DNA from: a virus
IMG/VR virus record: IMGVR_UViG_3300045988_176682
Length of the DNA stretch: 64,000 nt
Reading direction: 5' to 3' (one strand)
Shown: positions 9,528-51,571 of the stretch, piece by piece
Layout: the number at the start of each line of letters is the position of its first letter
Numbering within the stretch: the stretch's first letter is position 1
Position numbers and translations under genes: made by a program
The notes under the pieces: model-generated
Told to the model about the DNA's origin: nothing
Databases searched by the model: none
Seen by the model: only the letters and a program-made list of their open reading frames with translations

Positions 9528-9575
9528 CTGCTAACCGCTTATTAGGAGTTTTTCTACGGTTAAGTCTCTCAAATA

Positions 9576-10688: not shown

Positions 10689-10724
10689 AGCTATTTCCTT
10701 TCGTTATATTGATTAATAAAAACA

Positions 10725-10754: not shown

Positions 10755-10787
10755 TCAATCGTTTATTATAAACTATTAGGAGTTGAC

Positions 10788-11997: not shown

Positions 11998-12008
11998 TAT
12001 TGGGTTCC

Positions 12009-13288: not shown

Positions 13289-13307
13289 GACAACTCCCTA
13301 TATTTAA

Positions 13308-13754: not shown

Positions 13755-13768
13755 ATTAAAAACTCCTT

Positions 13769-13801
13769 AAAATAAAGGCCACCACCTATAAAGTGGTGGC
13801 C
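13769..13801 (-). terminator. intrinsic terminator after the major capsid gene
   Basis: Minus strand: 9-bp stem GGCCACCAC/GTGGTGGCC with a 7-nt loop, followed by TTTATTTT. Confidence 0.5.
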
Positions 13802-13821
13802 TGTTTAGCCTTTATAGGGAA

Positions 13822-15027
13822 TTAACCCTTATTAGCGGTCGTGTAGATAGAACGAGTATCACCGAAGACCAATTTATAACCGGTGGTTTCAGTTTTTACA
13901 TACGTTACTCTCTGTTCACGGATTGCAGTTTCAGATTCTTGAATCTGAGAACCTTCCTCAACCAATTCCTGCAAGGTTTCAGCTTTAGAGAAACCCAGCA
14001 ACTGTTTGTCCGGCATAGCCGAAGAAACAGCGAATTTAATCGGAACAAACAATCCCGGAATAGAGGCAGTCAGAGACGGACCACCTGCGGCAGCAACGGC
14101 CTCGGCTTCTGATTTGTTTCCACTCAAAGTCGGTGTAAACAGCATCATGTACATCAGATAGGTATCGTAGTTACCAACGATGGTATCAATCGGAGTACCT
14201 TTCTTAGCCATAGACAGCAACCATTTCAAGAAAGAAGCATAATCAATCTTGTTCGGGGTATTGGTAGCCGAAGAATTGTCTTCTTTCATCAAATCTGCCT
14301 GATAAACAACCGGAGCGGCTTTCTGAACAGAATCACCGTTAACCAGAATAGATGTAGCAGCAGCAACCTTAGACAGTTCCAGACGACGATTAATACGAGC
14401 GACATACGGTGTCAAAATATCAATCGAAGCTCTGCGGTCGAACTCATAAGTGAACTCATAACCGGAACCATGTTTGAACCAACGGACAGCCTGTTCGGTC
14501 GTCTTAATTTTGCGGATAGGAATACGAGCTCCTTCTGCAATGGTCCAGGTACCTTCAGCATCTTCATCAGATTCTGCAACGATTGAAATCATTTCGATAC
14601 CGCTGACAGTACGAGAGCTGCCTACGAGGTCAGAAACTTTTTCAATCTGGTCCTGACGGGTAGAGAAGCGAAGAACTTCATCCATAACCGGCTGGAACAG
14701 CAAACGAGTACCCGGGTAAGACTTAAAGGTCTCACCGGCCTGGGCCAACATGATGCTGTTAGCAAAGTCATTTTTAGTCGGCAAGGACAAGAAAGCCAAA
14801 GCGGCCTCATAGCCATCCATGCCGACTTCACGATAAGCCTTTCCGTCTTCGTCGTTCAGGTCAACGGCCAGTTTCAAGAAGTTAGGAATAGAAATACCAT
14901 ATTCTTTAACTTCGTTCAGCAGCATTTCTGCGGCATTACGAGAAGCTTCCGGAGACTTAGAAACAAGGTCACCTAAGAGAACTTTCAGGCCTCTTTTATT
15001 CTTGGATAATTCAAGTAAAGATTTCAT
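13822..15027 (-). CDS. major capsid protein (gpE position, HK97-fold presumed)
   Basis: 401 aa gene directly after the decoration-like gene and before a terminator. Order is protease/scaffold, decoration, capsid, as in lambda C/Nu3-D-E. Confidence 0.7.
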   Translation of the reverse strand: MKSLLELSKNKRGLKVLLGDLVSKSPEASRNAAEMLLNEVKEYGISIPNFLKLAVDLNDEDGKAYREVGMDGYEAALAFLSLPTKNDFANSIMLAQAGETFKSYPGTRLLFQPVMDEVLRFSTRQDQIEKVSDLVGSSRTVSGIEMISIVAESDEDAEGTWTIAEGARIPIRKIKTTEQAVRWFKHGSGYEFTYEFDRRASIDILTPYVARINRRLELSKVAAATSILVNGDSVQKAAPVVYQADLMKEDNSSATNTPNKIDYASFLKWLLSMAKKGTPIDTIVGNYDTYLMYMMLFTPTLSGNKSEAEAVAAAGGPSLTASIPGLFVPIKFAVSSAMPDKQLLGFSKAETLQELVEEGSQIQESETAIREQRVTYVKTETTGYKLVFGDTRSIYTTANKG

Positions 15028-15043
15028 TTCTTATTCCTTCCTC

Positions 15044-15475
15044 TTACGCAACAATACGAGCAACGACATAATCGCTGCCTTTTTCAACAATGTAGGTTTC
15101 GTTAACAGCAGCTGCTGTATCAGCCATTGCTTTCTTAACTTCACCGCTTCCGGCACCTACGATAGAATCACCGATAGCTGCTGCATCACTTGCTTTCAAG
15201 GGGAATTTAAACCATCCTCTTGTATATACAGTACCAACAACAACACCTTCGGCCTCCCGGATTTCTACCTTATCAAGATAACCGCGGATAGCATCTCCGT
15301 CCCCAGCCAATTTCATGGTGTTGGGAGCAGAAGCATCTACAGCCAGGGCTTTACCCTCATCTTTTTCGGTAATACCGGAAGCCAGATTAACAGTTACGGC
15401 ATCACTGGATACTTCGAGACCCAGTAAAGTTACACCCTGTCCAATTTGACTAGCCATATCTTTATTTCCTTCCAA
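15044..15475 (-). CDS. head decoration protein (gpD-like)
   Basis: 143 aa, Gly/Ala/Val-rich and beta-rich. GTVYTRGWFKF resembles the lambda D TLTFYKSGTF region. Position matches gpD. Confidence 0.5.
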   Translation of the reverse strand: MEGNKDMASQIGQGVTLLGLEVSSDAVTVNLASGITEKDEGKALAVDASAPNTMKLAGDGDAIRGYLDKVEIREAEGVVVGTVYTRGWFKFPLKASDAAAIGDSIVGAGSGEVKKAMADTAAAVNETYIVEKGSDYVVARIVA

Positions 15476-15476
15476 A

Positions 15477-16706
15477 TTAGTTTTTTAATCTCAAAGCTGC
15501 CAACTGATTAGCCGTATATTTACAACCATCATTATCTTTGGCATTACTATCTGCTGCGTTAGCAACCCCACCAACGGGGATACTTGCGGCCAGCGTTAAT
15601 TTACCACTCTCCAAAGCATCTTTCATACTCTGGAAATTAGCATCTTCCGGCAATTTTTCTTTTCCGGAAGCAACTAATACTTTATTTACCTCGTCCAACA
15701 TAAATTTCTTCATGTCTGCAAGTTCGGCTGCAACAGCCTCACTGGCATCAGGAGCGGGGTTAGCTTCCTCTTCGGAACCTTTCGGTTCTTCTTCGGCAGC
15801 TGGCTCGGCAGCGGGAGCGGGTTCTTCAGCAGGAGCGGCTTCTGCTTCGGGCTCTTCGGCAGCGGGAGCGGGTTCTTCTTTCTTAGCCAGTTCTTCGAAA
15901 CGACCCTCAACTTTCTCTTCGAATTTTTGAAGGTTTTCGGACAACTCGGCTAATTTAGCGAGAATTTCATCCATATTTTTTTCCTCTTCATCAGTTAATT
16001 TACCGTTAATATGCAAATTAATTGCCTGTTGTTCCAACTCGGACAAAGAGGCTTTAACTTGCTTACTGTTAGCAGCTAAGGAAAGCTGCTTAGTCTTGTC
16101 AAGAATCTTTGCATGGCGAGCAGCACCTCGGTTGACAAGAGAAACTTCATATAATTTTTCAACTCCGATAATATTCAAATGAGCGCCGTCTTTACCAAAC
16201 TTAGCATCACAATGAGGACAAGTACCGGTAAGAGAGGCAAGCCAACGGAGACCATCATCGGCTTCAAGGAAATCTTTCTGGCATTCAGAACAAATTAATT
16301 TCTTTCCTGAGAAGCCAATCGAAACTTCATCAATAATTCCGGCATCCAACTTACTGATAATCTCTGGGTGTTCGGTGCTGACAATGAATGTAGCATACAG
16401 GGCTCTTGCACCAGTATCCATTTCATCAACAGCCTTAGCAACGATAATTCTCCCCGTCGGGAGTTCTCTGTCATCGTGCATTACTTGAATAGTAGTATTC
16501 CGGAGAGGGTCATTCATAAGAATTTCCAGTTCGGAAATCGTAGAAGCAGAAACCTGAGCTTTGTCATACATAGAGTTTTGGCTAAGAGGTTCCGTAGAAA
16601 CTACCCGAGCCTGATAAGCAACAAATTTAGAAAGGTCAACGCCCTCTCCGCATTTTGCTTCAATCTGCTGTTTTAATCTCTCATCAATTTCTATTCTTTT
16701 CGCCAT
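15477..16706 (-). CDS. prohead protease / scaffolding protein (C/Nu3 position)
   Basis: 409 aa. C-terminal half is coiled-coil plus an acidic EEPAPAAEEPEAEAAPAEEPAPAAEPAAEEEP repeat, typical of scaffolds. A CxxC...CxxC pair is present. No protease catalytic motif identified. Confidence 0.5.
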   Translation of the reverse strand: MAKRIEIDERLKQQIEAKCGEGVDLSKFVAYQARVVSTEPLSQNSMYDKAQVSASTISELEILMNDPLRNTTIQVMHDDRELPTGRIIVAKAVDEMDTGARALYATFIVSTEHPEIISKLDAGIIDEVSIGFSGKKLICSECQKDFLEADDGLRWLASLTGTCPHCDAKFGKDGAHLNIIGVEKLYEVSLVNRGAARHAKILDKTKQLSLAANSKQVKASLSELEQQAINLHINGKLTDEEEKNMDEILAKLAELSENLQKFEEKVEGRFEELAKKEEPAPAAEEPEAEAAPAEEPAPAAEPAAEEEPKGSEEEANPAPDASEAVAAELADMKKFMLDEVNKVLVASGKEKLPEDANFQSMKDALESGKLTLAASIPVGGVANAADSNAKDNDGCKYTANQLAALRLKN

Positions 16707-16776
16707 GTCTATACCTTTGTTTTGTATAAATAAAGATTAACCTCTACAAATCTCATTTTCAATAGTTTATTTCAAA

Positions 16777-18285
16777 CTATTTATTCAAATTCTTCCCTTT
16801 TTCTCTTGGTGTCGTCGTTTTTGTCGTATTTGACCGGGCAGAATCATTATCATCCGGGGTTATTGCTCTTCCAAGAGGGTCACTGTTTGACGACACGTCA
16901 GCCGTATTAACTTGATTAGACCGGAAGTTAGTTCCCGACAATTTTGGATAATTCCAGAGAGGAATACGCCCATTATTAAGGATATGGTATTCTTCATCTG
17001 AGATTGTCCCTAAGGACAATTCTTCCATAAGACGAGACTGGCGCATAACCTTCTGGGCCTCCAGCTCAATCTCGGGCTTCAATTCCACGGGTCTGGATTG
17101 AATCTCTACATTTCCGTCAAATCCCTGTAATCTCATGGCCAAAGTCAAAGCCTCTGATAAAATATAATCGATAGGCTTATTAATTTGGTCGGCGTTCTTT
17201 GCGAAGACTTGAGCCTCTACAGAAGCGGTATTTACACCCGAAGAACCGCGGCCTAATACAGATGATACGGACTTGAGGGCAGCCTGGTTCTGCGCATTAA
17301 GGGTCTCAACGACCTCTGATATTTGCAAAGTAACGCCGGCAGCTTTATCATTAATTATTTTTACTGACATTGAATCAGTATGAGCTACAGGCTGGTCAGC
17401 AGCTACGCTAGTGAAGATGTTAGCTGCGGAAGCAACGAGATTAGATACCCATTCTTTTACTTTTGCTGGGTCATCTTTTATTGCGGCCGGGACATTTTTA
17501 AGGGCAACTTCTTCCATGACCGTAATATCAATCCTTGGATACCCGGTGATTTTCATAATTCGATAGAGGTCATTAATAACCTGTTGTCTGGCAGCAATCG
17601 TATTAATTGCACTTACAAAATATGAATATGTGTAAGGAGATGTCGGGTCTCTACGAAAAGAGGCCGTAAAAAATGTCGGAATATCGAGACTGATTTTTTC
17701 TCCGGATTCAGTTGTTTCCAGCTGGGGTTTATATTCCCCGGCCTTTTTCTCATACCATTTTACATAATACATATCTACGTTGCGGAGCTCGGAGGGCTGC
17801 ATTAATTTATCAACCACGAGCTCCACACCGATAGACCCACGGAGAAGTAGCATGTATTTTAAATTGGCTCTTATTTCATTAAGAGAAGCTTTATACTGAT
17901 AACCTAAAGTATAATCATTACGACGGGTTATCTGGTCGAGAATGGAAAATAATTGTTTTGTACCGTCCTGGCTTAACTCCCCATTACCGTCTCTGACAAT
18001 ATAAACCAAATCAGTGTCAGACATGGTAAGATAAGCGTTAACCGCCGCGGAGCAGTCCGGGTCGGTACGAAAGAGGTCTTTCAATAATGTCTGACTGTTT
18101 GAGGAATGCCGGCTGGTATAGATGTCGGTTAAATGCTCGTAATAATTTGGAGCTGAAAGAACTTCCGTATTACCTGCCTTATAAGTATCGGTAACGGATG
18201 TTCCCCCGGCCTTAGCCGACTTGGTGGGTAATATGTAGCTAAAAAGTTTGCTGCTTGAAGAAGCTAATCTTGCAATGATACCCAT
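16777..18285 (-). CDS. portal protein
   Basis: 502 aa gene immediately downstream of the large terminase, with a basic C-terminal tail. Confidence 0.65.
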   Translation of the reverse strand: MGIIARLASSSSKLFSYILPTKSAKAGGTSVTDTYKAGNTEVLSAPNYYEHLTDIYTSRHSSNSQTLLKDLFRTDPDCSAAVNAYLTMSDTDLVYIVRDGNGELSQDGTKQLFSILDQITRRNDYTLGYQYKASLNEIRANLKYMLLLRGSIGVELVVDKLMQPSELRNVDMYYVKWYEKKAGEYKPQLETTESGEKISLDIPTFFTASFRRDPTSPYTYSYFVSAINTIAARQQVINDLYRIMKITGYPRIDITVMEEVALKNVPAAIKDDPAKVKEWVSNLVASAANIFTSVAADQPVAHTDSMSVKIINDKAAGVTLQISEVVETLNAQNQAALKSVSSVLGRGSSGVNTASVEAQVFAKNADQINKPIDYILSEALTLAMRLQGFDGNVEIQSRPVELKPEIELEAQKVMRQSRLMEELSLGTISDEEYHILNNGRIPLWNYPKLSGTNFRSNQVNTADVSSNSDPLGRAITPDDNDSARSNTTKTTTPREKGKNLNK

Positions 18286-18294
18286 ACCTTTGCC

Positions 18295-20064
18295 TTAAAA
18301 TAAACGATTTTCTCTTGAACTACTATATCCAATTAAATTTATATTGTCTATAACATTTTTAGATTTATCTTTCAAGGAGTTAGTAGGAACCGCAGTAATC
18401 AGACACTCTCTCGTTTCTCCTTTAGCTTCGCCTAAACCTTCAACATAATAGATTTTTTCAGCTACCATAGCGTAAGCAGAAGCATGAAAAAAGTGGTCGG
18501 TACCGTTTATTTTTCTCCACTCCGGAGCTTTTCCGGCCTCATCATCTCTAATCATATCGCGGAAATGGAGGATAAGGGTGTCCAAAAGGTCTCCATAACC
18601 ATAAAGAGACAATTTTTCTTGTGATATACCATCCATCACGCGGTCGAGAGCAGCTGTGCGGCTTATGGTATAATAAATTACCTTCCCATCAATATCTTTC
18701 TTAGGCTCGGCATCTCGGAACCCGGCATAAATTACAGGCATAATTTTACCATTGGACTCCTCAAAAATTTCGTCGGAAAGAGATGTATAAGGGTATCGGT
18801 CGATTGCTCCGGCAATAATTCGATACTTATCTTGGAAATATTTTATTCTTTCTTTTAACTTTTTATAATGTACCTGCTCGAATTTAACAAGAGCCCCTTC
18901 AACATATAAAGCAATATGGCAGACTAATCCCACGTCAATACCAATAAACATAGGCTTGTCTTTGGAAATGTCCGGAGTATTAGGAGATTGTGCCGCCTTA
19001 CGGATTTTGAACTCTTCCATTCTAGAATTTCCACTCTCATAATCTTCTCCCAATACAGTATTAAATCCTCGACGGACTTTTCCCTTTTTAATATAATCAG
19101 CCATAGTCATAACAAGGTATTTAATGCTGAGAAGGGGGGAAGAGAAAGGACGAACCTGATAACCTCGGGAATGAAGACGACTTGGATACTTAGGAACCCA
19201 TTCTCTTCGACTGTCATCATTCAAATCCAAAGGCTTGCCACACTTGGTACATCTTACATAAGCGGAATCAAGGTCGAGACCAACCGCTATTTTGGCATCA
19301 ATATCGGTTATAACATTAATTTCTTTAGGCAAATCAGGAATACAAACACTGTTTAAGTCATATAGCGGAACCTGCTGATGATTACAATGAGGGCATTTAT
19401 AGAAATACTCATGCTGGTCAGACCCCTCATACTCCAAGGACACCCCATAACCGGTAAAGGTTGGGGTACTGAACATTTGCTTTATCTTAAAATCAGAGTG
19501 TTGGTAGCGGGAATTAAACAGAGCAATGATTTCCATATCTGACAAATCAAGCTCATCGTTAATAATCATATCGACCGGGGTGGACGTAGCGTCAGCTTCA
19601 CTGTTACCGGCAATATAAAGAAAGGAATCTCCCAGCTGCATAATGGAATTATTACGGACTTCCTTTCCCTCTTTTCCGCCAAACTTAGGAAAATCTCTAT
19701 CGAGGATGGGTCTGATACGAGTCTTACTGTTTCGGTCTCTCATCTCGGTAGTTGGGAAAGAATACAAGGCATTAGTTCCCGGGTTTTGTATCAAGAAGCC
19801 AAGGGTTTTTCGAATTTGTCCCTCGGTAAGACCAACTTGGGATAGCTTTTTACAGCAAAGATTGGGGTGCATGTCGTCCAATATCTGTCTCTGGAACTCG
19901 TGTCTCTTAAAAGAAAAAGGCTGTCCTTTTAATGTGGTATTATTACAAATCCATTCGGCCATGGATGTATCTTTATTAATGGACTCGATTTTTTCAACAA
20001 TGCTTTTTATGTAGGGGTTAGTATTCCAATCCATATCGGTCTCCTTGCTTAAGAGATAAATCAA
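18295..20064 (-). CDS. terminase large subunit, GpA family
   Basis: 589 aa, first gene of the operon. CCKKLSQVGLTEG matches the lambda gpA Walker-A-like KSARVGYSK. Also carries the CxxC...CxxC pair (KCPHCNH...RCTKCGK) seen in gpA-type terminases. Confidence 0.8.
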   Translation of the reverse strand: MIYLLSKETDMDWNTNPYIKSIVEKIESINKDTSMAEWICNNTTLKGQPFSFKRHEFQRQILDDMHPNLCCKKLSQVGLTEGQIRKTLGFLIQNPGTNALYSFPTTEMRDRNSKTRIRPILDRDFPKFGGKEGKEVRNNSIMQLGDSFLYIAGNSEADATSTPVDMIINDELDLSDMEIIALFNSRYQHSDFKIKQMFSTPTFTGYGVSLEYEGSDQHEYFYKCPHCNHQQVPLYDLNSVCIPDLPKEINVITDIDAKIAVGLDLDSAYVRCTKCGKPLDLNDDSRREWVPKYPSRLHSRGYQVRPFSSPLLSIKYLVMTMADYIKKGKVRRGFNTVLGEDYESGNSRMEEFKIRKAAQSPNTPDISKDKPMFIGIDVGLVCHIALYVEGALVKFEQVHYKKLKERIKYFQDKYRIIAGAIDRYPYTSLSDEIFEESNGKIMPVIYAGFRDAEPKKDIDGKVIYYTISRTAALDRVMDGISQEKLSLYGYGDLLDTLILHFRDMIRDDEAGKAPEWRKINGTDHFFHASAYAMVAEKIYYVEGLGEAKGETRECLITAVPTNSLKDKSKNVIDNINLIGYSSSRENRLF

Positions 20065-41294: not shown

Positions 41295-41507
41295 ATGATT
41301 ACTTATATTTTAATCGGAGGAATAATCTTTTTGTTAGATATGTTTTTTAATGAAGAGGATTATAAGAAATTATCTCCCGAAAGCAGGTATTTTCTAACAC
41401 ATAATATAACGTACTTTTTGGTTACTTTCTTGATTATCTCTCTTATATGGCCTCTGATTATACTTCATTGGTTAGTACAGTTAAAAGGAAAGATTAATCA
41501 TGAATAA
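41295..41507 (+). CDS. small membrane protein (2 TM)
   Basis: 70 aa ORF. Confidence 0.4.
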   Translation: MITYILIGGIIFLLDMFFNEEDYKKLSPESRYFLTHNITYFLVTFLIISLIWPLIILHWLVQLKGKINHE

Positions 41508-41715
41508 CGTTTTTATACCTTTTAAAGAGGTAGGAAGTTCTTTAATTATTCTTATTGATGTAAATAAGATTTCTTATATCAAAGAAGTTTCTTCGGATTC
41601 TAAGAAAAAAATAATTCTTGAAATACTTCTTGATAATGGAACCTTAGTACTTGTTGATGAGACTCTTAATTCGATAGTTAATAAAATGAAGAGAATGAGG
41701 TTATTTAATGTTTAA
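41500..41715 (+). CDS. hypothetical protein
   Basis: 71 aa ORF. Confidence 0.35.
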   Translation: MNNVFIPFKEVGSSLIILIDVNKISYIKEVSSDSKKKIILEILLDNGTLVLVDETLNSIVNKMKRMRLFNV

Positions 41716-42039
41716 TATAAATAATGATTTTTTACTTTATGATTTCGAGCCGAAAAAGCTTGGATTTAGATTAAGGGATTTTTTACGGAAAAAATTTTGG
41801 GCCCTCTGTCGCACTGAACTTCTATGTTGTTATAAGAGAAGATAATTTTAATTATTGGGAAATTATCTTTTTATATCAGAAAAATAAAAAGGCTCCGGAA
41901 CATTTTAAACGTTCAAGTATTCAGAAAAATCTAACGTTAAAATCGGTTATTAAGCTCTCTGTATTTATAGATACCAAAACCAAAATTAAAGACCTTTTCC
42001 CTATTTTAGATTCTTTGTGCATTACTCTTAAAAATATGA

Positions 42040-42101
42040 TTGACAATAATCAAGATGAGATATAATGTCTTCTTATGACAATAAGAGTCTTATATTGTCA
42101 T
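42040..42101 (+). promoter_or_regulatory. promoter (TTGACA ... TATAAT) followed by an operator-like imperfect inverted repeat
   Basis: TTGACA at 42040..42045, TATAAT at 42061..42066 (15-nt spacer). ATGACAATAAGA-g-TCTTATATTGTCAT at 42075..42101. Confidence 0.4.
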
Positions 42102-42134
42102 TTACCGAAACTTAATAAAAGAAAGGAATTTTTT

Positions 42135-42986
42135 ATGTCAGAAGTCAATATTAACGATGTCATCTCTCAAGCTCTTGCCAACGGTGAAATAAACTGTCCG
42201 GAAGGAGTTAATCCTGCTCAATGGGAAATGGCTAAGGCTGTTTACTTTAACCAGATTGGTATGTCTGCCCAGGCCGCCTCTGTAGCCGCCCCGCAAGCCG
42301 TCCCGGCAGCCTCTGTTCCAGTAGCATCTGTTCCCGCTACCTTAGGAAACGCTGCTGCTCCTGCTGCATATACCCCGCAAAGTTCTGCTTTCGACCTCGA
42401 TGCTCCGACCTCTTCTGGTCTGTCTGGTGTAGAAGGTTATTTGAAATGTAAGCACAGTCAAACAATCGTAGACGATAAGATTGTAACCAATAACTCTTTC
42501 ATTGCTGAAATTGTTATGGCTAACGTAACCAAAAAGTTATCTATTCGCGGAGGTTCTGCCGGTAACATTAAATATTTCTCAACAACCGACGGCGTTACGG
42601 CTAACGATGGTACTCCTTGGATGACAGCTATCCAGAACATTCAAAGAATCCAAGCCGATGCCCGTCCTTATACAAGTTACGACATTCCGCTGAAACTGTG
42701 TGAAGACTTGGTTAATGTCAGCGTAGTTAATGGTCAGGCTGCAACCTCAGTAGTAGCTCCGGCAGGGACTGTATTGGGACATACTACGGCTATCACCGGA
42801 AGAGCCGGTTTTGAGTCTTTAATCAATGACCTGAAACGTGATGGAAAAGTACCGAGTAACGAAATTGTTTATGTCCGCGTTGTCCGTCAAGACAGAAACA
42901 AAGGAAGCTTTGCTTGGGCTACTTTTAATTTTGAATTGTTGGATGAGAACGAAGCTGCTACTTATGCGGCTAAGATGTCTGCTTAA
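42135..42986 (+). CDS. hypothetical protein (two domains joined by an Ala/Pro-rich linker; possibly ssDNA-binding or annealing, from context)
   Basis: 283 aa from the ATG at 42135, with AAAGGA 7 nt upstream. Own promoter and operator. Immediately upstream of the FEN and polymerase genes. Confidence 0.3.
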   Translation: MSEVNINDVISQALANGEINCPEGVNPAQWEMAKAVYFNQIGMSAQAASVAAPQAVPAASVPVASVPATLGNAAAPAAYTPQSSAFDLDAPTSSGLSGVEGYLKCKHSQTIVDDKIVTNNSFIAEIVMANVTKKLSIRGGSAGNIKYFSTTDGVTANDGTPWMTAIQNIQRIQADARPYTSYDIPLKLCEDLVNVSVVNGQAATSVVAPAGTVLGHTTAITGRAGFESLINDLKRDGKVPSNEIVYVRVVRQDRNKGSFAWATFNFELLDENEAATYAAKMSA

Positions 42987-43086
42987 CAGTCAATTTAATT
43001 CCCACCCAGTTAGGGCTCTGGTAAAAAGCCCATCTCCCCAACCCGAGAACAATTATCTCGGGTTCCCCCTTTCAGGAGAAACGCAT

Positions 43087-43884
43087 ATGGTTTTAATTTA
43101 TGATGTTAATAACTGGATAAGAGTTAAACTGTCAACCGACGGAGACCAGTTAACCATTAACAATTTCTGGTCTGAGGTTTTATACAACTCTTCTAAAGGA
43201 GAGGTTCAAATTTTTGTCTCTGATGGTTTTAATTCGAGAAAAAAGAGAAAAGAAATCTATCCAGAGTATAAAGCAAAAAGAAAGCCTGCCGATGCCTCTA
43301 TTTATGATGGTATCAATTTCTTTAAGAACCTTTTGCGTCATGCTCCAAAAAATGTTTTTTATGTAGAAGTCCCGGAAATGGAAGCAGATGATATTATAGC
43401 TCATCTGGTAAGATACCGAAATAATTACTACATTGGAAAAGATATTCATATTATTTCAACCGATAAAGATTTAACCCAGCTTTTAGTTTATCCCGGAGTA
43501 ACTACTCTGGCTACTCCTCCGGTAGAACCTAGATTTGTTAGGCTTTATAAAACTTTAGTTGGGGATAATTCAGACAATATTCCGGGAGTGCCGGGAATAG
43601 GGAAGTCTTCTTGGGAGAATATCCCGGAAGAAGTAAAAAAAGAACTTAATATGATGTTGGCCTCCGGCGGGATGTTGACCGAACATTTGGCAGATGAATT
43701 AGAAAAATGTTTCAAGCCAAAGCAACTGGAAAATTTTTATGAAGCTTATTATAATGGTAGTCTGCACATGTTCTTTAAGATTGTAGATTTTATAGATTAT
43801 CCATTTAATCCGTCAATATTGAAGACAGGAGACGGAGACTTAAACTTTGTTAACAAGCAACTGAATGAGTTATTTATATTATGA
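43087..43884 (+). CDS. 5'-3' exonuclease / flap endonuclease (FEN, PIN + H3TH)
   Basis: MVLIYDVNNWIR, EVPEMEADDII, IISTDKDLTQL, LVGDNSDNIPGVPGIGKSSWE. ATG at 43087, with AGGAGA 7 nt upstream. Confidence 0.75.
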   Translation: MVLIYDVNNWIRVKLSTDGDQLTINNFWSEVLYNSSKGEVQIFVSDGFNSRKKRKEIYPEYKAKRKPADASIYDGINFFKNLLRHAPKNVFYVEVPEMEADDIIAHLVRYRNNYYIGKDIHIISTDKDLTQLLVYPGVTTLATPPVEPRFVRLYKTLVGDNSDNIPGVPGIGKSSWENIPEEVKKELNMMLASGGMLTEHLADELEKCFKPKQLENFYEAYYNGSLHMFFKIVDFIDYPFNPSILKTGDGDLNFVNKQLNELFIL

Positions 43885-45509
43885 GAAACAATGCTTGGCT
43901 TAGTTCTGGAGGAGATGAAGCGAGTGATGAAGTAATCACTCCCAGATACGTTGTGGAACCTATTGTCAAATATCTTAAGGCTAAAAATTTTAAGGTTGTT
44001 TGGTGTCCGTTTGATACGGTAGTGTCCCAATATGTTCGCGTTCTTTATAAGGAAGGGTTTGATGTCAGGTTTGGACACCGAGACATAGGGCTTGACTTTT
44101 TCAAATATGAATGTCCGGAAGCAGATGTCATTGTTTCAAATCCGCCGTTCAGTTGTTATAGCGATGATACAGAGGTATTTACTAAAAGAGGATGGATTAG
44201 ATTTCCGAATATATTACCAACTGATGAGATTTTATCCGTAAACAATAAAAAAGAAATTAGTTGGGATAAAATTTCGAGAGTTATAAAAAAAGAGGTTAAT
44301 GAGGATTTATATCATTTTAAAAATAAAAACATGGATTTATTAGTTACCTCTGACCACAGGATGTTTGCCTACAATAAATATTCTAATGAGTTATGTATTG
44401 GTAAAGATGGGGATTTATTAAGAGCTTCCGAAATTGGAAGTAAACACTATTTTCCTAAAAATGGATATACTTGGAAAGGAGAGATTAACAACGATTATTT
44501 AGTTCTCCCACATACAAAAAATCCCCCTAGGAGTAAAGTTAGCTTTTATCCTGAACTAAAGATACCTCTAATTGATTGGCTTCCTTTTTTCGGATTATGG
44601 TTGGCTGATGGATTCGTTTCTACATATAAAGGAACCGGACATGAATATACTGTGGGGATAAAACAAGGAGAATCTAGATGGAGAGAGGTAGAGAATATCT
44701 TAAATAAGTTACCTTTTAAATATTCTAAATATATAAATAAAATATACCCCAGCGATAGGGAAAGAAAAGCTGACTATGCTATATATCAAAAACAATTATG
44801 GGATTATATGAACCAATTTGGTAAATCTCAAAATAAATTTATTCCTTCTTGGATAAAAAATCTTCCTGTGAGGTATTTAAAGCTTCTTATTTATGGCTAT
44901 ACTTTAGGAGATAGTTTTAGACATAAAGGAATAAATTCAATAACTACTTCTATTCATTATGGGTCAGTTTCTAAACAGTTGCTAGAAGATATTCAAGAGA
45001 TATTATTAAAATTAGGAAATATAACTAATATTTCTCACCAGATTTTAAATAATGGTAATGATTATTATCGCTTAATCTTGAATAAAGATAGTTGCAGTAA
45101 CAGAGCTATGTATATACGTAAAAATCCTCAAAATAAGGAACCCTATAATGGGTTAGTATATTGTTTAACTCTAAAAGAGAATAGTATTTTTTTAGTGAGA
45201 AGAAACAATAAAATAATATTTTGCGGTAATTGTAAAGACCAAGTATTGGAAAGACTTTATAAATTAGATAAACCCTTTATGGTTTTATTTCCTGTTCAAG
45301 TATTACAGGGAAAGAAAAGAACCAAGTTGTTTATGAAATATGGGTTGGAGTATCTTGGATTTGATTCCCGTCCTTGTTTTTATACCAAAAATGACTTATC
45401 GTCTATAAAAACGGGAAATCATTTTGCCAGCGGATATTATTGCCGGAATGTTCTTCCGGAGAAATTAATTTTTGAAGAATTAAAATTAATACAGGAGCCT
45501 TTTATATGA
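43881..45509 (+). CDS. phage Dam-like N6-adenine DNA methyltransferase interrupted by an intein (exteins ~91 + 92 aa)
   Basis: N-extein DEVITPRYVV ... VIVSNPPFS (motif IV NPPF), then C-extein KDQVLERLYKLDKPF.... Extein total of ~183 aa fits the small phage Dam family. Confidence 0.6.
   Translation: MRNNAWLSSGGDEASDEVITPRYVVEPIVKYLKAKNFKVVWCPFDTVVSQYVRVLYKEGFDVRFGHRDIGLDFFKYECPEADVIVSNPPFSCYSDDTEVFTKRGWIRFPNILPTDEILSVNNKKEISWDKISRVIKKEVNEDLYHFKNKNMDLLVTSDHRMFAYNKYSNELCIGKDGDLLRASEIGSKHYFPKNGYTWKGEINNDYLVLPHTKNPPRSKVSFYPELKIPLIDWLPFFGLWLADGFVSTYKGTGHEYTVGIKQGESRWREVENILNKLPFKYSKYINKIYPSDRERKADYAIYQKQLWDYMNQFGKSQNKFIPSWIKNLPVRYLKLLIYGYTLGDSFRHKGINSITTSIHYGSVSKQLLEDIQEILLKLGNITNISHQILNNGNDYYRLILNKDSCSNRAMYIRKNPQNKEPYNGLVYCLTLKENSIFLVRRNNKIIFCGNCKDQVLERLYKLDKPFMVLFPVQVLQGKKRTKLFMKYGLEYLGFDSRPCFYTKNDLSSIKTGNHFASGYYCRNVLPEKLIFEELKLIQEPFI
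44154..45230 (+). mobile_element. intein (359 aa) with LAGLIDADG homing endonuclease
   Basis: Begins CYSDDTEVF (block A). Block B is LLVTSDHRMF. Two LAGLIDADG motifs (LPFFGLWLADGFVS and LLIYGYTLGDSF). C-terminal VYCLTLKENSIFLVRRNNKIIFCGN followed by a +1 Cys. Inserted directly after NPPFS. Confidence 0.7.
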
Positions 45510-45817
45510 CAAAATTCAACTGTGGTCTATTTGATATGGTAGGAAATTGGCAGCATGGAGAAATAATTGAGGGAACTTATCGAACCAGAGATGCCGCTTC
45601 AAAATATCTCGGAACAAATCGAGATAAGATTATTGACCAAAGATACCTTTGTGTGGTTACGGATAATAAAAATTCAATCGCAGTTTATTTGGTAACCCCT
45701 AAAAATATCTTTAATCAAAAAAGTTTGATTGAAGTTAAACTTGCCGAGGGATTAAGGGGAGATTTAGTAGATGTACTTGTTGATAGCACCCTACACACAC
45801 CAAAGCTCTCTGGTTAA
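45506..45817 (+). CDS. hypothetical protein
   Basis: 103 aa ORF. Confidence 0.4.
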   Translation: MTKFNCGLFDMVGNWQHGEIIEGTYRTRDAASKYLGTNRDKIIDQRYLCVVTDNKNSIAVYLVTPKNIFNQKSLIEVKLAEGLRGDLVDVLVDSTLHTPKLSG

Positions 45818-46121
45818 AAAGGCCAGAGCCCGAGCCACTTTAGATGTAGCCAACAGCCTTGGTACAGAGGTTATGGCTCCCTCTCTTTATGCCCACCTAA
45901 TCGGCGAAACCGGAGAGACTTTTAATCTTCATGCGTTAACTTTTTCTCTGCTTAGAAATGTTAACGGAGTTATTGCTTATAAACTTCCCGGCTATCAAAT
46001 TGACGAGGAATTTAAGAAAACCATAGAGGCTGCTGTAGCTCTTGATATACCCGTACAAATGATGGACCCTTATCCGTCTCATTTACAGGGTAATTATGCA
46101 GACGTTTGGCAGTCTCTTTAA
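45771..46121 (+). CDS. hypothetical protein (possibly DUF1937/DUF4406-like nucleoside 2-deoxyribosyltransferase fold)
   Basis: MYLLIAPYTH ... VIAYKLPGYQIDEEFKKTIEAAVALDIPV. Confidence 0.3.
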   Translation: MYLLIAPYTHQSSLVKKARARATLDVANSLGTEVMAPSLYAHLIGETGETFNLHALTFSLLRNVNGVIAYKLPGYQIDEEFKKTIEAAVALDIPVQMMDPYPSHLQGNYADVWQSL

Positions 46122-46137
46122 CGAAGGAAAATAATCA

Positions 46138-48813
46138 ATGCAGCAACCACAACCAGTACCGTCTTTATTAGTCGATGCCAGAAATTATCATACGATATTC
46201 CCGGCTTTAATTGAGAAAATAAAAAACGCTCCCTATTGCGGGATTGATATTGAAACTCATAATGGAAAGGCCCACGATGGCATTAAACTTTACAATAAGC
46301 AGAAGGGTAAAAATGCGTTTGATATACGGCGCACTGTTATCACTGGAATTTCTTTTTACCCCAAAGGAGATACTTGTGCTTACTATGTTAATCTTAATCA
46401 GCTTGATAAAGATAACAGACTTCCTATTGAAGCCGTAAAACAACTTCTTGTATCTAAGTTATGGATTATTCATAATGCTAAGTTCGAATTAACGATGTTG
46501 ATGGCCGTTTATGGTATTGACCTCTCCTCTTATATTTGCACTTATCAATTAGCGGTTTCAGCATTTGGGCCGGACAATTACGATATTGGAAAATTCTGTG
46601 CCACTCCTTTGGGAGAAATCGGGAAACTTTTACCGGAAATTTCCCGAACCTTTGAAAATTATGATATTAATAAACAACCCACACCGGCGCAGGCAGAATT
46701 GATAGGAAAAGTTTGTGGAAAATCCTCGGATGCCGCTCACTCTTACAATGGCTGGGTAAAAGAGATTGCCTATGGTTATGGTTTGAAAAAGCTTGTTAAA
46801 AGCCTGTTTAATTATGATATGGAACACTATGATGAATGTTTAATGTCCTCAAACTATGCCAAACAGCGTGATTTTATTATGAAGAGTAAAGACCCCCAAA
46901 TCAAAACTCTTCAACCATACTTTGAGGAAGAACCACACATGGGCCATTTAACTGGAGAAGAAGTTGTTTCTTATGGTGCCGATGACAGCTATTGGTGTGT
47001 TCAAGTTTATGAGTGGTTACTTGAGTTTATTTTAGCTAACTCCCCGGAAGTTATTCCTACATTCCTTAATCAGGAAAATCCTATGGCTAAAATCTTCTCT
47101 AAGATTACTCTCGGGGGATTGAGAATTAATGAGGAAAACGTATATAAAAAGAGGGACGAGGAACGGGTTAATCTTGCCCATACTCTGAGAGATATAAAAA
47201 AGCATATAAGGGAGCTTCTTCCATTCAAATGTAATGAATATCCTGAAACTTTGATGAAGTCAGAAACCTGGTACAGTAAAGACCCTGAAAAATACCGGCA
47301 GAAGATTAGAGAATTTGCTTATTCTCCGGACTTTGATGATTCTCCGGAAGGGATAAAAAACCAAATTTATCAAGTGAACGGAGGAGCGGCTAATTCTTAT
47401 GGGGAAGATAACAAGACTGGCATAATTAACTTGTCCCATTATATGCCGCAAAGGGTTCTTTTTTATGACCTGATGGGTTTTAAGGGTATTAGGAGTAAAG
47501 GAAAGTTACAGTCGGATAAGAATGCCAGAGGTAAAATGATTGAAGAGTGTGAGAAAGATTCTCCTCAACATCTTATCTTAGAATGCTTAAATAAGATTTC
47601 TCAGGTTGACCAAGTTTGTAAACTTTACCTTAACCCTTACTTACTCTTGATTGACCCCGAGACCAAAAGAGTTTATCCAGACATCGGCTCCGACCTCGCT
47701 ACCCGTCGTATGTCAATGTCTAACCCGAACGGTCAACAGCTGGCCAAAGGCGGAGACTCTTCTTATATTCGAGGATTCTATCTTCCTGACAGAGATGACC
47801 ATGTTATTATGTCATCCGACTGGTCAAATATGGAGTTGGTAATCCCGGCAGAACTTTCTGGAGACCCGGAGTTCTTAAAATGCTTCGGACAGATACCTTA
47901 TGAAGACTTACATGCCATTGCCGCGGCAGCGATGTTAGAGCTTACTGATGAAGAGTTTGCCTCATTAAAGGACCTTCCGGAAGATGTTGATAACATCCGA
48001 GGAATCCATTTTAAGAACGAGAGAGGTGAAACATTGAAACCGAAAGATTTCTGGAAATGGGCAAGAAAGAACCTCGGGAAAGGTGCTAACTTCTCCTACG
48101 CTTTCTCCGGAGCCCTGTCTAATCTTCAAGAAAAACTGGGTTGGAGTGATGAATATCATTGGGCCAAGGTAGAAGCTTACCGGAACCGTTTTAACGTGTT
48201 TGAGGAATGGAGACTGGGTATCATTGCTGATGCCAAAGCCCAAGGCTTTGTCCAACTCCCTGACGGTCATAAAAGATACCGGTTTGAGGCTACTCAGATG
48301 TGGAGGCAGATAATGACAGATAAGTTTTTAGCAACCTATGATTCACCCGGCGTTAGAAATTTCTTACAAAAATTCCTGAAATTAACGCAAACTAGGGCAA
48401 ATAACCAGGCGGTTAACGCTTTGGTGCAAGGTACCGCAGCGGCGCTGACCAAGAGAAGTATGATAAGGTTATCAGAAGAGATTACTAAACGGGGATGGGA
48501 TGACGGAAGAGTTAGAATTATGATGCCTATCCATGATGAAATTGTGGCTTCTGTACATAAAGATCTTGTTCTTGAATATCGTAAATTGATTAGACAGGTT
48601 ATGTGTGAACAACCGTGGCTTTTCCACAAGGTTATTCTTAACTGTTCAGTCAGTATGGGAAGAACTTTCGAACCCTTTAATCTTGAGAAAGCTCCTCTCG
48701 GTCAAATTGAGTTGGACGAGGCTCCTCATGTTGACTTTATCGACCAGAAGTTTTGGGGTAAATCAATGGATGATGAAGCTGTCAAAAGATGCCTTGACTA
48801 TCTTTTTGAATAA
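46138..48813 (+). CDS. DNA polymerase I (family A) with 3'-5' exonuclease domain
   Basis: Exo I YCGIDIETHNG, Exo II WIIHNAKFELTML, Exo III YGADDSYW. Pol motif A DWSNMELVI, motif B RKNLGKGANFSYAFSG, motif C MPIHDEIV. Confidence 0.85.
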   Translation: MQQPQPVPSLLVDARNYHTIFPALIEKIKNAPYCGIDIETHNGKAHDGIKLYNKQKGKNAFDIRRTVITGISFYPKGDTCAYYVNLNQLDKDNRLPIEAVKQLLVSKLWIIHNAKFELTMLMAVYGIDLSSYICTYQLAVSAFGPDNYDIGKFCATPLGEIGKLLPEISRTFENYDINKQPTPAQAELIGKVCGKSSDAAHSYNGWVKEIAYGYGLKKLVKSLFNYDMEHYDECLMSSNYAKQRDFIMKSKDPQIKTLQPYFEEEPHMGHLTGEEVVSYGADDSYWCVQVYEWLLEFILANSPEVIPTFLNQENPMAKIFSKITLGGLRINEENVYKKRDEERVNLAHTLRDIKKHIRELLPFKCNEYPETLMKSETWYSKDPEKYRQKIREFAYSPDFDDSPEGIKNQIYQVNGGAANSYGEDNKTGIINLSHYMPQRVLFYDLMGFKGIRSKGKLQSDKNARGKMIEECEKDSPQHLILECLNKISQVDQVCKLYLNPYLLLIDPETKRVYPDIGSDLATRRMSMSNPNGQQLAKGGDSSYIRGFYLPDRDDHVIMSSDWSNMELVIPAELSGDPEFLKCFGQIPYEDLHAIAAAAMLELTDEEFASLKDLPEDVDNIRGIHFKNERGETLKPKDFWKWARKNLGKGANFSYAFSGALSNLQEKLGWSDEYHWAKVEAYRNRFNVFEEWRLGIIADAKAQGFVQLPDGHKRYRFEATQMWRQIMTDKFLATYDSPGVRNFLQKFLKLTQTRANNQAVNALVQGTAAALTKRSMIRLSEEITKRGWDDGRVRIMMPIHDEIVASVHKDLVLEYRKLIRQVMCEQPWLFHKVILNCSVSMGRTFEPFNLEKAPLGQIELDEAPHVDFIDQKFWGKSMDDEAVKRCLDYLFE

Positions 48814-48859
48814 ACATAATATGGAAGTAGTTTTTAATTATGTGTCGGGATAAAAACTC

Positions 48860-51571
48860 ATGCAAACTCTACTTCCTTCTGGCCCTGTTAAATCACAGTA
48901 CACCGGAGACGGTACTAAAACCGTATTCGAGTTTAATGTAGATATTACGGACAATTCTGTTATCCGAGTCTATTTGAACAACGTCGAAAGTTCTTCCGGA
49001 TGGACTTACAGTGAAGAAGGAAAGTCTGTTACTTTCACCACCGCCCCTGCTGCCGGGACCAGTATCGTTATAATGCGATACGCCCCGGCAGCTTATACTG
49101 AAAGCATTACCGACAAAGGTATAATTTCCCCGGAAACTTTAGATAATATGGCTGTCGAGCTGACGGCTCAGATTCAGACTCTGGAAGAGAAACTGTCTCG
49201 GGCTCCGGTATTTCCTGTCGATACCGACAGAACCGGAGAAGAGATATATAATGACTTCAAACAAATGGAAAGTTCCACGGTTTCTGCCGCGGCAGAAAGC
49301 ACCGCTGCGGTACAAGATGTTAAGGAATTAAGGGATGAATCTCTTAATAGCCTTAATACCGCTGTTGAGACCGCCAAACAAACTATCGGAAGTTATACTA
49401 ACAACATGGTCGGCACCGTTGAAGACGCTACTGCCGGCTATATTAACCAAGCCAAAACTTGGGCTACCGGAGAGATTGATGAGGTAGCCGAAATCCAACC
49501 GGGAGAACGGTCATCTCGAGGTTATGCTGATGTTTCTGCGGCTTATGCCAGTACTCCGGAAGATGTTCCGATTGAGGACAGCGATATATTGGCCTTGGAA
49601 ATATTTAAAGGAGATAAGGGTGACCCAGGAAATGACGGTCTCCCTGGAGGAGGCTGGGAACTTTTTGACCATAAGTCTTCTGACCACCTCATTAACAACT
49701 ATGGCTGGGTTCGTTCTAATCTTCAATGGTGTTATGGCTCTATGTATCAGAGCGGTTATAATCACCTTATAGAGACCTCTGATGCGATTGCTTATACTAA
49801 AAAATATTATCAAGTTAATAACGGGTCTGTTAAGTATTTAATTAATTATACTAAGACCCAGTTACAGGCTTTAGTAGATGATATAAGAGTATCTGAAAAA
49901 GAGAAAGTAGTTGCCTTATATACTTATCAGAATAACTCGGGTCCTCTTCCGGTAGTTTATCAATATAATAAAGCAAGAGATATTCTTAATGATGCCAATT
50001 TTACATGGCCTAACGGAAGCACAGAAACTTTTACCAGAAGTACAAAATATTCCGAAATAAGCTATCTGGACCGGTACAAGGACGGGTATAATTTTACCAA
50101 TCAAAAGGCTATGATAAAAAGGAACGGTTGGACAAGGTTTGGTACTACCAGTATCATAACCTTACCGATAGGGGTACCACAAGCAACCGGTACTAATGAT
50201 AACTGGACTTTCTTTACCCATTTCAAAACCGGGTCTAATATTAGTGCCAGACAGGTTATCTTAAATATGCAATATAACGGAACCGCAGATTATGGGCTTA
50301 TTTTAGATATTTATTCCTCAAAAATTAACATATATGTTTCAAGCGACGGAACTTCATGGGATGTTATCAGTAACGTATCAGGTACCACTACTTTAACAAT
50401 TAATACTGAATATTACCTGAAATTAGAAAGATATTATGTAGCCAGGGGTAATGCCGGCTATCGGGTTTACTTGTCTCGGGATGGGGTTACTTGGTCTACT
50501 GAGATAAATCAAGTAAAAGATGCTGGTATCTTGGCCGGTAATAAGCCCGGTACTGTTGTTATTGGTAATAAGACCTCAGATATGGCTAGATATTTCAGAG
50601 GATATATTGATTTAAGCGAGAGCAGGTTTGAACATAAACTTCCCCAATATAACTGGGAACCCTATCATTGGGTGGATATTAATTATTACCGAAATTCCGA
50701 GGGAAGAAAAATTTGCTCATCCGGACAAGAGGATAATCTTCGTAAAGTTATCCAATTAAGCGGACAGGCATGGTATTATATTCTCGACCGAAGTAATGAG
50801 AGATTTAAACTCCCTTATTCCGAAAACTTCGAACGGTTTGGTACTAAAAATATCGGAAATTACCAGGAAGATATGTCTCAGGATTTTGCTGTATTTTGGG
50901 AAGGTTCAGATGATAATTATACTAGGTATCCTGATATGATAAACCTTTCCGGAAATATTATTTTCCCGGAAAGGAATTATGCCGGTATAGATGAATTTGG
51001 ACCTTATACCAGTAATGAGGCTACCACTTGGGACCGTCTCGAAGGCAGGATGTCTAATAAGTATAATGCCGGAGACCAGGTATCTCCTCGAGCAACTTTA
51101 TTTTATCTCTATTTCTATCTTGGAGAAGTTGCTGCTTCTTCGGCCAGTGTTGACCTGAACGGATTAAGTGAAACTGTTGCTGATAAAATGGATAATGATT
51201 TCGGGAACGCAACCATAGGGTTCGACCCGGTAATTGATTATTATCCTAAGACAGATGCCGAGAAAACAGCTGAATCCAATGCCGGAACTTACAGATGGTG
51301 GAGAAAATACAGGAGTGGTTGGATTGAACAGGGAGGATTTATTGATACTGTATCAGAAAACTCTACGGCTACGATTGAGTTTTTAAAAAATTTCAATAAT
51401 AAAAAATACTTTGTCTCTTTATTGGAAGTAAAAAACAAAGATACTTCAAACAACGGCTCAACTAACGCGAACGCTATTTCTCAACAAGATACATACCGTA
51501 TGGTTATTATTACCTATTCTTGGGACAATGGTCGTTTATGGGAAGCAAAAGGATGGGGAGCTGATGAATAA
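48860..51571 (+). CDS. tail fiber / receptor-binding protein (T7-tail-fiber-like N-terminal anchor, collagen-like tract, LamG/ConA-like C-terminal domain)
   Basis: N-terminus YTGDGTKTVFEFNVDI...VRVYLNNV...VTFTTAPAAGTSIVI. GDKGDPGNDGLPGG. C-terminal beta-rich lectin-like domain. Confidence 0.6.
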   Translation: MQTLLPSGPVKSQYTGDGTKTVFEFNVDITDNSVIRVYLNNVESSSGWTYSEEGKSVTFTTAPAAGTSIVIMRYAPAAYTESITDKGIISPETLDNMAVELTAQIQTLEEKLSRAPVFPVDTDRTGEEIYNDFKQMESSTVSAAAESTAAVQDVKELRDESLNSLNTAVETAKQTIGSYTNNMVGTVEDATAGYINQAKTWATGEIDEVAEIQPGERSSRGYADVSAAYASTPEDVPIEDSDILALEIFKGDKGDPGNDGLPGGGWELFDHKSSDHLINNYGWVRSNLQWCYGSMYQSGYNHLIETSDAIAYTKKYYQVNNGSVKYLINYTKTQLQALVDDIRVSEKEKVVALYTYQNNSGPLPVVYQYNKARDILNDANFTWPNGSTETFTRSTKYSEISYLDRYKDGYNFTNQKAMIKRNGWTRFGTTSIITLPIGVPQATGTNDNWTFFTHFKTGSNISARQVILNMQYNGTADYGLILDIYSSKINIYVSSDGTSWDVISNVSGTTTLTINTEYYLKLERYYVARGNAGYRVYLSRDGVTWSTEINQVKDAGILAGNKPGTVVIGNKTSDMARYFRGYIDLSESRFEHKLPQYNWEPYHWVDINYYRNSEGRKICSSGQEDNLRKVIQLSGQAWYYILDRSNERFKLPYSENFERFGTKNIGNYQEDMSQDFAVFWEGSDDNYTRYPDMINLSGNIIFPERNYAGIDEFGPYTSNEATTWDRLEGRMSNKYNAGDQVSPRATLFYLYFYLGEVAASSASVDLNGLSETVADKMDNDFGNATIGFDPVIDYYPKTDAEKTAESNAGTYRWWRKYRSGWIEQGGFIDTVSENSTATIEFLKNFNNKKYFVSLLEVKNKDTSNNGSTNANAISQQDTYRMVIITYSWDNGRLWEAKGWGADE

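Follow-up and report, generated by a model that had tools for sequence, protein, structure and literature searches.

What is the long insert that splits the catalytic motif of a phage methyltransferase gene, and is it still mobile? The question is raised by a single open reading frame (ORF) in a 64,000-nucleotide stretch of viral DNA, IMG/VR record IMGVR_UViG_3300045988_176682 (hereafter the window; all coordinates are positions in it, and the features described lie on its + strand unless stated otherwise). The ORF (43881..45509; 542 codons plus a stop, predicted mass 63.7 kDa) is listed for the window as one uninterrupted frame, and comprises a 91-residue N-extein, a 359-residue intein and a 92-residue C-extein. 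An earlier note, made from the sequence alone, took it for a phage methyltransferase whose NPPF motif is interrupted by an intein bearing a LAGLIDADG homing endonuclease, and every test upholds this core reading, with the junctions S91|C92 and N450|C451. We hold with high confidence that it is a genuine full-length mobile intein, consisting of a Hint splicing domain and a two-motif LAGLIDADG endonuclease, and that it interrupts a minimal orphan N6-adenine methyltransferase encoded among the replication genes of a tailed phage. Taking the parts of this reading separately, the insert is almost certainly a true intein, and it very probably splices.

Boundaries of the insert and an intein-free allele

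The N-extein (43881..44153) is recognised by its match to phrog_799 and by alignments of homologues; it ends ...VIVSNPPFS at residue 91, and the sequence then continues C92-YSDDTEV. The intein (44154..45230; 42.3 kDa) ends ...KIIFCG449-N450, and the C-extein (45231..45506) starts as C451-KDQV, Cys451 being the +1 nucleophile. Residues 1-91 and 451-542 were fused in silico, and this spliced product was compared with 5.8 billion proteins. Among the 1463 matches obtained, the best 120 are only 182-232 amino acids long, and are therefore insert-free. The alignment of the methyltransferase family passes uninterrupted through the splice junction, and a profile comparison likewise places residues 10-178 of the spliced exteins on phrog_799 ('DNA methyltransferase'; E=4e-26), contiguously from one extein into the other. 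That the two flanks belong to one methyltransferase family, as the earlier note had it, is thus borne out.

The most informative match is the top one, P0001, a protein of 183 amino acids from another metagenome that is collinear with the spliced product and 97% identical to it over 100% of its length. The DNA encoding P0001 is a 702-nucleotide contig, L001, from a different metagenome to that of the window. When positions 44154..45230 (1077 nucleotides) are removed from the window, L001 aligns to the remainder with no gaps and 682/702 identities, so the insert is exactly the predicted 359 codons, and the intein is precisely the stretch absent from this intein-free allele. The sequence of the intein-free allele is ...AACCCGCCGTTCAGTTATAAGGATTTAATCCTA....

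The intein-bearing form is recurrent. The gene, in unchanged synteny, is found again on L002, an independent contig of 24 kb with 98% DNA identity to the window, and six contigs, the longest of 73.6 kb, encode exactly this precursor protein, annotated there simply as 'hypothetical protein'; the public annotation can now be replaced by intein-interrupted adenine methyltransferase. This recurrence excludes an assembly artefact. LAGLIDADG genes are common in group I introns, and one might ask if the insert is an intron of this kind, or else a chimera of assembly. Both are exceedingly improbable: the reading frame is unbroken through both junctions, Hint blocks flank the endonuclease, a comparison of 43500..45900 with Rfam gives no match, even at E<=1, and the same structure is present on independent contigs from other samples.

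Conserved splicing and endonuclease motifs

The motifs that the earlier note had named (CYSDDTEV, TSDH, two LAGLIDADG motifs and the IIFCGN|C junction) are all present at the places given there. We scored the conservation of individual residues over 49 aligned intein-bearing homologues, which are 31-99% identical, and compared this with a wider family of 187 full-length domains, collected by searching 1.84 billion representatives clustered at 50% identity. Block A, CYSDDTEVFTKRG (44154..44192), begins with Cys92, which is intein residue 1, is invariant among the 49 homologues, and has a Cys counterpart in 185/187 domains of the wider family. Block B, MDLLVTSDHRMFAY (44331..44372), contains T156 (B:7), H159 (B:10) and M161 (B:12), all three invariant. 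The first LAGLIDADG motif is LPFFGLWLADGFV (44580..44618; residues 234-246), with D243 and G244 invariant, and the second is LKLLIYGYTLGDSF (44877..44918; residues 333-346), with D344 invariant; the two helices end GLWLAD243G and GYTLGD344S, and their acidic residues recur in 181/187 and 180/187 domains respectively. Block F, GLVYCLTLKENSIFLVRRN (45150..45206), was placed by alignment with the family profile; it has Cys428 (also invariant) at F:4 and lacks the block F His. Block G together with the C-terminal junction (KIIFC-G449-N450 then C451; 45210..45233) contributes the invariant G449 and N450. The invariant set therefore covers both splice junctions and both active-site aspartates of the endonuclease. 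Across the wider family, the His of TxxH, the terminal Asn and a Ser, Cys or Thr at +1 are each found in all 187 domains, with Cys at F:4 in 166, penultimate Gly (a GN ending) in 170, and Cys, Ser or Thr at G:5 in 157.

Structure prediction points the same way. An AlphaFold model of the precursor, built with the 49 homologues, has a predicted local distance difference test score (pLDDT) of 83, and its endonuclease region is modelled confidently. In a Foldseek search it matches the TliVMA intein best (E=4e-17), followed by PhoVMA, PI-SceI and PI-PkoII, and it also matches the endonucleases I-DmoI, I-SceI and I-WcaI, mini-inteins and the Hint domains of Hedgehog proteins. At the sequence level, block B aligns with block B of the AceL NrdHF intein (6zgq).

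Could the insert nevertheless be domesticated, with methyltransferase and endonuclease working as a single fused 64-kDa protein that does not splice? Splicing is here a prediction, and a LAGLIDADG domain outside an intein has been discussed for actinophage methylases (PMC9957025). We consider such a fusion highly improbable: the insert splits the catalytic NPPF loop, and Cys1, TxxH, the terminal Asn and a +1 Cys, Ser or Thr are conserved across hosts with unrelated exteins, for which only splicing can account. All 187 intein domains are followed by Cys, Ser or Thr at +1, whereas aligned intein-free members of the methyltransferase family show free variation at the corresponding residue, which may be C, Y, L, K, I, V or Q.

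A probable homing signature at the insertion point

The filled and empty alleles allow a direct look at mobility. Their differences are strongly clustered, with 15 of the 20 mismatches falling between -40 and +17 of the insertion point, that is, within 58 of 702 nucleotides (binomial P=6e-13), and the outer flanks (about 300 nucleotides upstream and about 130 downstream) are identical in the two alleles. The upstream half of this zone (44114..44153; -40 to -1) has four mismatches, at -40, -37, -19 and -13; the downstream half (45231..45247; +1 to +17) has nine mismatches in 17 nucleotides, the +1 codon included, which is TGT (Cys) in the window and TAT (Tyr) in L001. The stretch 44114..44153 is presumed to be the endonuclease target or a co-conversion tract. 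Clustering at the junction is expected from homing with co-conversion, from selection of empty sites that resist cleavage, or from both, and the data cannot separate these. As for L001 itself, its positions 405..425 correspond to the window junction 44153|45231, with Tyr at +1 and nine differences in the first 17 nucleotides downstream, and it may be a cleavage-resistant ('immune') allele as opposed to a naive target. The window and L002 on the filled side and L001 on the empty side, differing almost only at the junction, form a natural pair for the study of homing, co-conversion and target immunity in an uncultured phage.

Base composition and variation are also informative. The intein has a G+C content of 0.288, compared with the N-extein's 0.410 and the window's 0.385, and its composition is thus foreign. 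The precursor belongs to a cluster, at 90% identity, of 43 members; the 15 members listed are all 542 amino acids long, and vary at 15/359 sites in the intein and 7/183 in the exteins. Within the endonuclease region the same 15 members show no indels and 8/190 variable sites. Neither the splicing part nor the endonuclease part shows any sign of decay.

Under homing, the free intein or the precursor would cut intein-free alleles near ...AACCCGCCGTTCAGT^TATAAG... during co-infection, and repair from the invaded copy would carry over the intein together with some flanking extein sequence. An alternative is that splicing has been kept while the endonuclease has lost its activity, the element now being fixed and vertically inherited and the junction differences being old. 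The intein-bearing allele does dominate, with 43 variants on many contigs set against one intein-free contig of 702 nucleotides, and the free allele differs at 9/17 nucleotides beside the insertion site, as it would after a completed homing cycle. Against this, both acidic LAGLIDADG residues are invariant, the region is confidently modelled, and its freedom from indels and few variable sites (among 15 listed members of the 43) mean that it varies no more than the exteins do. We therefore regard loss of activity as less likely than not, though not far-fetched, and an endonuclease that is still active as fairly probable; the element is real and apparently still mobile.

Several points weigh against the reading of the insert as a splicing and homing intein, and must be set beside the above. 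First, splicing and DNA cleavage, by this intein or by its close relatives, are predictions from sequence. Second, the comparison with intein profiles proposed in the earlier note succeeds only in part: Pfam LAGLIDADG_3 (PF14528) is matched above threshold (38.3 bits against 22.5; E=1.6e-9, residues 339-404), but the splicing-domain profiles, although they match at the right positions, fall just under their cut-offs, with Intein_splicing (PF14890) at 26.0 bits against 35.8, intein_Nterm (TIGR01445) at 22.6 against 24.5 and intein_Cterm (TIGR01443) at 14.9 against 15.6. Third, the known intein-free allele could be a resistant target and not a sign of recent homing. Fourth, the intein-bearing allele is the prevalent one in this phage population, so the endonuclease may have few targets left. 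Fifth, the catalytic set is not that of class 1, with Gly at the penultimate position (G:6), no block F His and Cys428 at F:4, and the chemistry of the first step is uncertain because of this departure from the textbook set.

Route of splicing

The mechanism that we favour begins with a 63.7-kDa precursor that would be unable to methylate, since its catalytic loop is split. After translation the intein would excise itself: Cys92, possibly with Cys428 (F:4), would form the thioester at the N-junction, the acyl group would move to Cys451, Asn450 would cyclise, and an S-to-N shift would complete the reaction. The expected products are a 21.4-kDa methyltransferase (...NPPFS-CKDQ...) and a free 42.3-kDa intein.

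The penultimate Gly, which the earlier note had remarked on as standing in place of His, is indeed present, but it is no oddity. It occurs in 170/187 domains, Kelley et al. 2016 (PMC5050341) reported little conservation of a penultimate His among the inteins of phages, and inteins lacking this His are known to splice (PMC5050341; PMC7891396). The intein of Bethlehem gp51 (RDF), with Gly as its last residue but one, splices well, and changing this Gly to His slowed splicing (PMC5050341). The C-terminal 50 residues of the intein have no match in the PDB; the correspondence of blocks F and G came from the family profile. When the family splicing-domain profile is aligned with Mja KlbA and Spl DnaX, V-Y-C falls on I-Y-D of the former and V-Y-D of the latter, and K-N-S falls on the D-N-H/H-N-H of these inteins, from which it follows that F:4 is Cys, not Asp, and that the block F His is absent.

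This combination raises the possibility of a class 3-like route, or a relay of two cysteines, in which the branched thioester with the N-extein would be made by Cys428, in place of Cys92 or following it, as in the AceL NrdHF intein; excision would have the same outcome by another chemistry. In class 3 inteins the F:4 Cys serves as the nucleophile and is indispensable (PMC2807308; PMC5222942); here it is invariant in the lineage and present in 166/187 domains, and in alignment it occupies the place of the Asp that standard inteins have at F:4. The nearest solved relative, AceL NrdHF (6zgq), has been confirmed biochemically as class 3, with an unusual M-C-T triplet and neither block F nor penultimate His (PMC7891396). 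In the window intein B:12 is Met, both F:4 and G:5 are Cys, and the same two histidines are missing. Inteins with the WCT triplet that start with Ser1 or Cys1 were, moreover, noted by Tori et al. 2010 (PMC2807308). On the other side, class 3 inteins typically have a non-nucleophile at position 1 and need none there (PMC5222942), so that the retention of Cys1 in 185/187 domains argues that it is used. Of the class 3 residues only the F:4 Cys is present, Trp B:12 and Thr G:5 being replaced by Met161 and Cys448; the similarity to 6zgq is limited to blocks A and B; and some 10 relatives combine this GN ending with Asp at F:4. A class 3-like or relay route is accordingly possible but doubtful, and a departure of the splicing chemistry from class 1 is less likely than not. 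Excision by protein splicing remains very likely by whichever route; the first acyl shift may go via Cys92, via Cys428 or via a relay of the two.

A broader and more speculative proposal, which we consider rather unlikely, is that a large and mostly virus-borne intein family splices by neither the textbook class 1 nor the class 3 route, with one sub-lineage specialised in homing to methyltransferase motif IV. The signature of such a family would be Cys1 ... TxxH-(R/K)-M ... Cys(F:4) ... [C/S/T]-Gly-Asn then [S/C/T], and its members may use a relay from Cys1 to Cys(F:4) to the +1 nucleophile, or may engage the F:4 Cys first despite the presence of Cys1. If true, the shared (D/N)PP(Y/F) of motif IV would be a landing pad between non-homologous amino-methyltransferases of different permutation classes. 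The set of Cys1, Cys(F:4) and Gly-Asn, with a fast class 3 intein as nearest characterised relative, is seen in most of the 187 related domains and makes the family a candidate for mechanistic work and for new inteins in protein engineering.

Related inteins in other methyltransferases

With the intein alone as query, 94 proteins were retrieved, about 70 of which (as protein clusters) are methyltransferases of 450-630 amino acids with the intein at or next to motif IV. Relatives of the intein occupy this motif in at least six methyltransferase families. The N-side junction reads NPPFS then C in the family of the window (P0121-P0123), NPPYS then C in P0124-P0126, and NPPYK then C in the largest group (P0127-P0159). 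In P0160, P0170, P0174, P0178 and P0186 it is SNPPF then C, with GN then T at the C-terminal end; in P0163, P0165 and P0180 it is GNPPFG then C; and in beta-class enzymes of PF01555 (P0161-P0184) it is (A/T/G)D(V/I/M)PY then C. A fragment, P0193, has SPPYW then C. Across these groups the inteins are 36-43% identical to that of the window, whereas extein identity ranges from 83% down to undetectable. The inteins are thus closer kin than their hosts, which implies that inteins have moved more than once into the corresponding site of different methyltransferase families. We propose that a single lineage of inteins has come to occupy the matching motif IV site in several families of methyltransferase that are unrelated to one another, and the presence of one lineage at this motif in at least six of them is a clean case of non-allelic spread via a shared catalytic motif.

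A second pair of filled and empty alleles comes from the DVPY group, where the intein-free gp48 of Ruminococcus phage phiRM10 is 85% identical to the exteins of P0162. The intein-bearing form of the P0162 family is covered by none of 967 matching phage records. Searching the intein by tblastn against 50,697 phage records gave no listed match under a methylase annotation, and the best match among these records is 28% identical and comes from a Lak megaphage.

More distant relatives of the intein (28-32% identical) occur in unrelated proteins, and many of them belong to proteins of 1000-3300 amino acids with more than one intein. In this wider family (P0215-P0359), many members occur two to five to a protein. 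A recurrent insertion site there is ...GDK(L/M) then C...N then S.R.G, which we take to resemble a motif of the RNA polymerase beta subunit.

Closer to the window intein, complete relatives all end in G-N except three, which end S-D-N (P0163), S-V-N (P0184) and T-G-D (P0191). P0185, P0189, P0190 and P0194 are shortened forms that start inside the intein. These altered or shortened relatives are possibly decaying copies or broken gene calls.

The host methyltransferase

The N-extein carries a motif X-like DEVITP, then VWCPFD, then motif IV as SNPPFS (44136..44153), and the insertion point lies one residue after the catalytic NPPF. Within this motif, N87-P-P-F90, both N87 and P89 are invariant in 61 homologues. 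The identification of the enzyme as Dam-like (PF05869) in the earlier note does not hold, in that neither the precursor nor the spliced exteins match PF05869 at E<=1. Beyond phrog_799, the exteins have a sub-threshold match to PF13651 (EcoRI_methylase; 23.5 bits against a cut-off of 26.4), a family that is also precomputed for the homologues P0053 and P0118, and a sub-threshold match to PF02384 at the NPPF region.

A profile search against the PDB gave only marginal matches (E>=0.06) to the M subunits of type I and type II systems, confined to the NPPF region, with the TP and NPPF motifs of the family aligning weakly with theirs; a fold search was for this reason needed to place the enzyme. 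The AlphaFold (AF2) model of the intein-free allele, made with 61 homologues, has a mean pLDDT of 91.5, and its Foldseek matches are DIMT1/KsgA, M.TaqI, TrmM, type I M subunits and M.BseCI, all with a template modelling (TM) score of only about 0.5. On this model, the exteins are predicted to form a minimal N6-adenine methyltransferase of 183 residues, with a class I S-adenosylmethionine (SAM) fold of the M.TaqI/KsgA/TrmM kind and without a separate target-recognition domain. The source annotations of homologues disagree as to whether these are DNA methyltransferases or tRNA m6A methyltransferases. If protein splicing proceeds as proposed, methyltransferase activity, and hence anti-restriction protection of the phage DNA, would be made dependent on it.

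The nearest homologues in deposited phages are at most 50% identical and are found in the Thermus phages TMA and phiYS40, and also in Prochlorococcus, Campylobacter and Listeria phages. Each of these matches spans only about 500 nucleotides, which leaves no room for an insert.

Two features of the family alignment may be recorded here. The family is unusually small (about 183-200 amino acids), with no recognisable target-recognition domain, and at the expected position of motif I it has an invariant C-P-F-D, not a Gly-rich loop.

Genomic setting

The window encodes a tape measure protein, large terminase, portal, primase, helicase, family A polymerase and an SbcC-like protein, and is that of a tailed phage. 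Megablast of 42000..49000 against the 50,697 phage records gave no match, and this phage is thus without a close deposited relative. The methyltransferase gene is placed between the genes for a 5'-3' exonuclease and the polymerase, making it an orphan methyltransferase within the replication module. Its ATG overlaps the stop of the exonuclease gene (ATGA), and a second ATGA overlap links its own stop with the ATG of the ORF that follows.

The exonuclease ORF (42838..43884) has a GTG start that overlaps the preceding ORF by about 150 nucleotides. On L002 the exonuclease is called as 265 amino acids, corresponding to a start near window position 43087, and this internal start is probably the true one. 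Directly upstream of the exonuclease gene, a 303-residue ORF (42075..42986) includes a stretch rich in Ala, Pro and Val and is conserved in L002. Its local G+C content is 0.43-0.50, against 0.385 for the window and 0.25-0.29 just upstream, and it has no PHROG match at E<=1e-5. The very AT-rich region 41300..42050 (G+C 0.25-0.29), upstream of the replication genes, contains a series of small overlapping + strand ORFs of 45-71 amino acids, and the same small genes are called on L002. Finally, a 903-residue ORF (48860..51571) directly after the DNA polymerase has weak N-terminal matches to tail and tail-fibre PHROGs (E about 1e-7), which is unexpected at this place, as the structural module lies on the other strand (1..20000).

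Comparison with known systems

The kind of element described here is already known from phages, both methylase inteins and the penultimate Gly having been published. As a general rule, inteins insert at catalytic motifs of nucleic-acid enzymes (PMC5050341; PMC9957025). Kelley et al. 2016 (PMC5050341) listed eleven inteins in two mycobacteriophage N6_N4_Mtase families, DNMT-1 and DNMT-2; the Dorothy-type intein of an actinophage methylase has a LAGLIDADG domain and shows evidence of long-distance transfer (PMC9957025). With these precedents, and about 70 methyltransferase clusters in our own search, the assertion that inteins are rare in DNA-modification enzymes was overstated. In intein-bearing form, the methyltransferase family and intein lineage of the window appear, by sequence comparison, to be absent from the 50,697 deposited phage records. 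We found no report in the open-access literature either of one intein lineage at motif IV across several methyltransferase classes or of the family-wide signature of Cys1, Cys(F:4) and Gly-Asn, and claim novelty for neither.

Considering first the methyltransferase, M.TaqI, the type I M subunits, KsgA/DIMT1 and TrmM share with the exteins the Rossmann-like class I SAM fold, the order of motifs (...TP..., then NPPF) and the NPPF/NPPY tetrapeptide. The match is weak (TM about 0.5, 12-16% identity), and the exteins, at only 183 residues, are without a separate target-recognition domain.

Turning to the intein, the VMA-type inteins (PI-SceI; TliVMA and PhoVMA, 7qsu/7qss/7qst; PI-PkoII, 2cw7) have the same architecture, a Hint domain with an inserted two-motif LAGLIDADG endonuclease, but only 10-18% sequence identity and other host proteins. 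Of the solved relatives, AceL NrdHF stands nearest in sequence (E=2.8e-10 by family profile), sharing the ...HRM of block B besides the features discussed above, although the similarity is detectable only in the N-terminal blocks. It is naturally split, has no endonuclease, and carries Ala1 and Thr at G:5, whereas the window intein is contiguous, contains a LAGLIDADG domain, and carries Cys1 and Cys at G:5. The intein of mycobacteriophage Bethlehem gp51 combines Cys1 with a penultimate Gly, as does that of the window, in another host protein and at another insertion site.

A further parallel is with the methylase inteins of mycobacteriophages and actinophages. These likewise combine an orphan phage methylase with a LAGLIDADG intein, are patchily distributed with filled and empty alleles, and show evidence of transfer between divergent methylases, as does the lineage of the window intein. 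They differ in both components: their hosts are PF01555 methylases and not the minimal NPPF enzyme of about 183 residues represented by phrog_799, and their inteins belong to a lineage other than that of the window.

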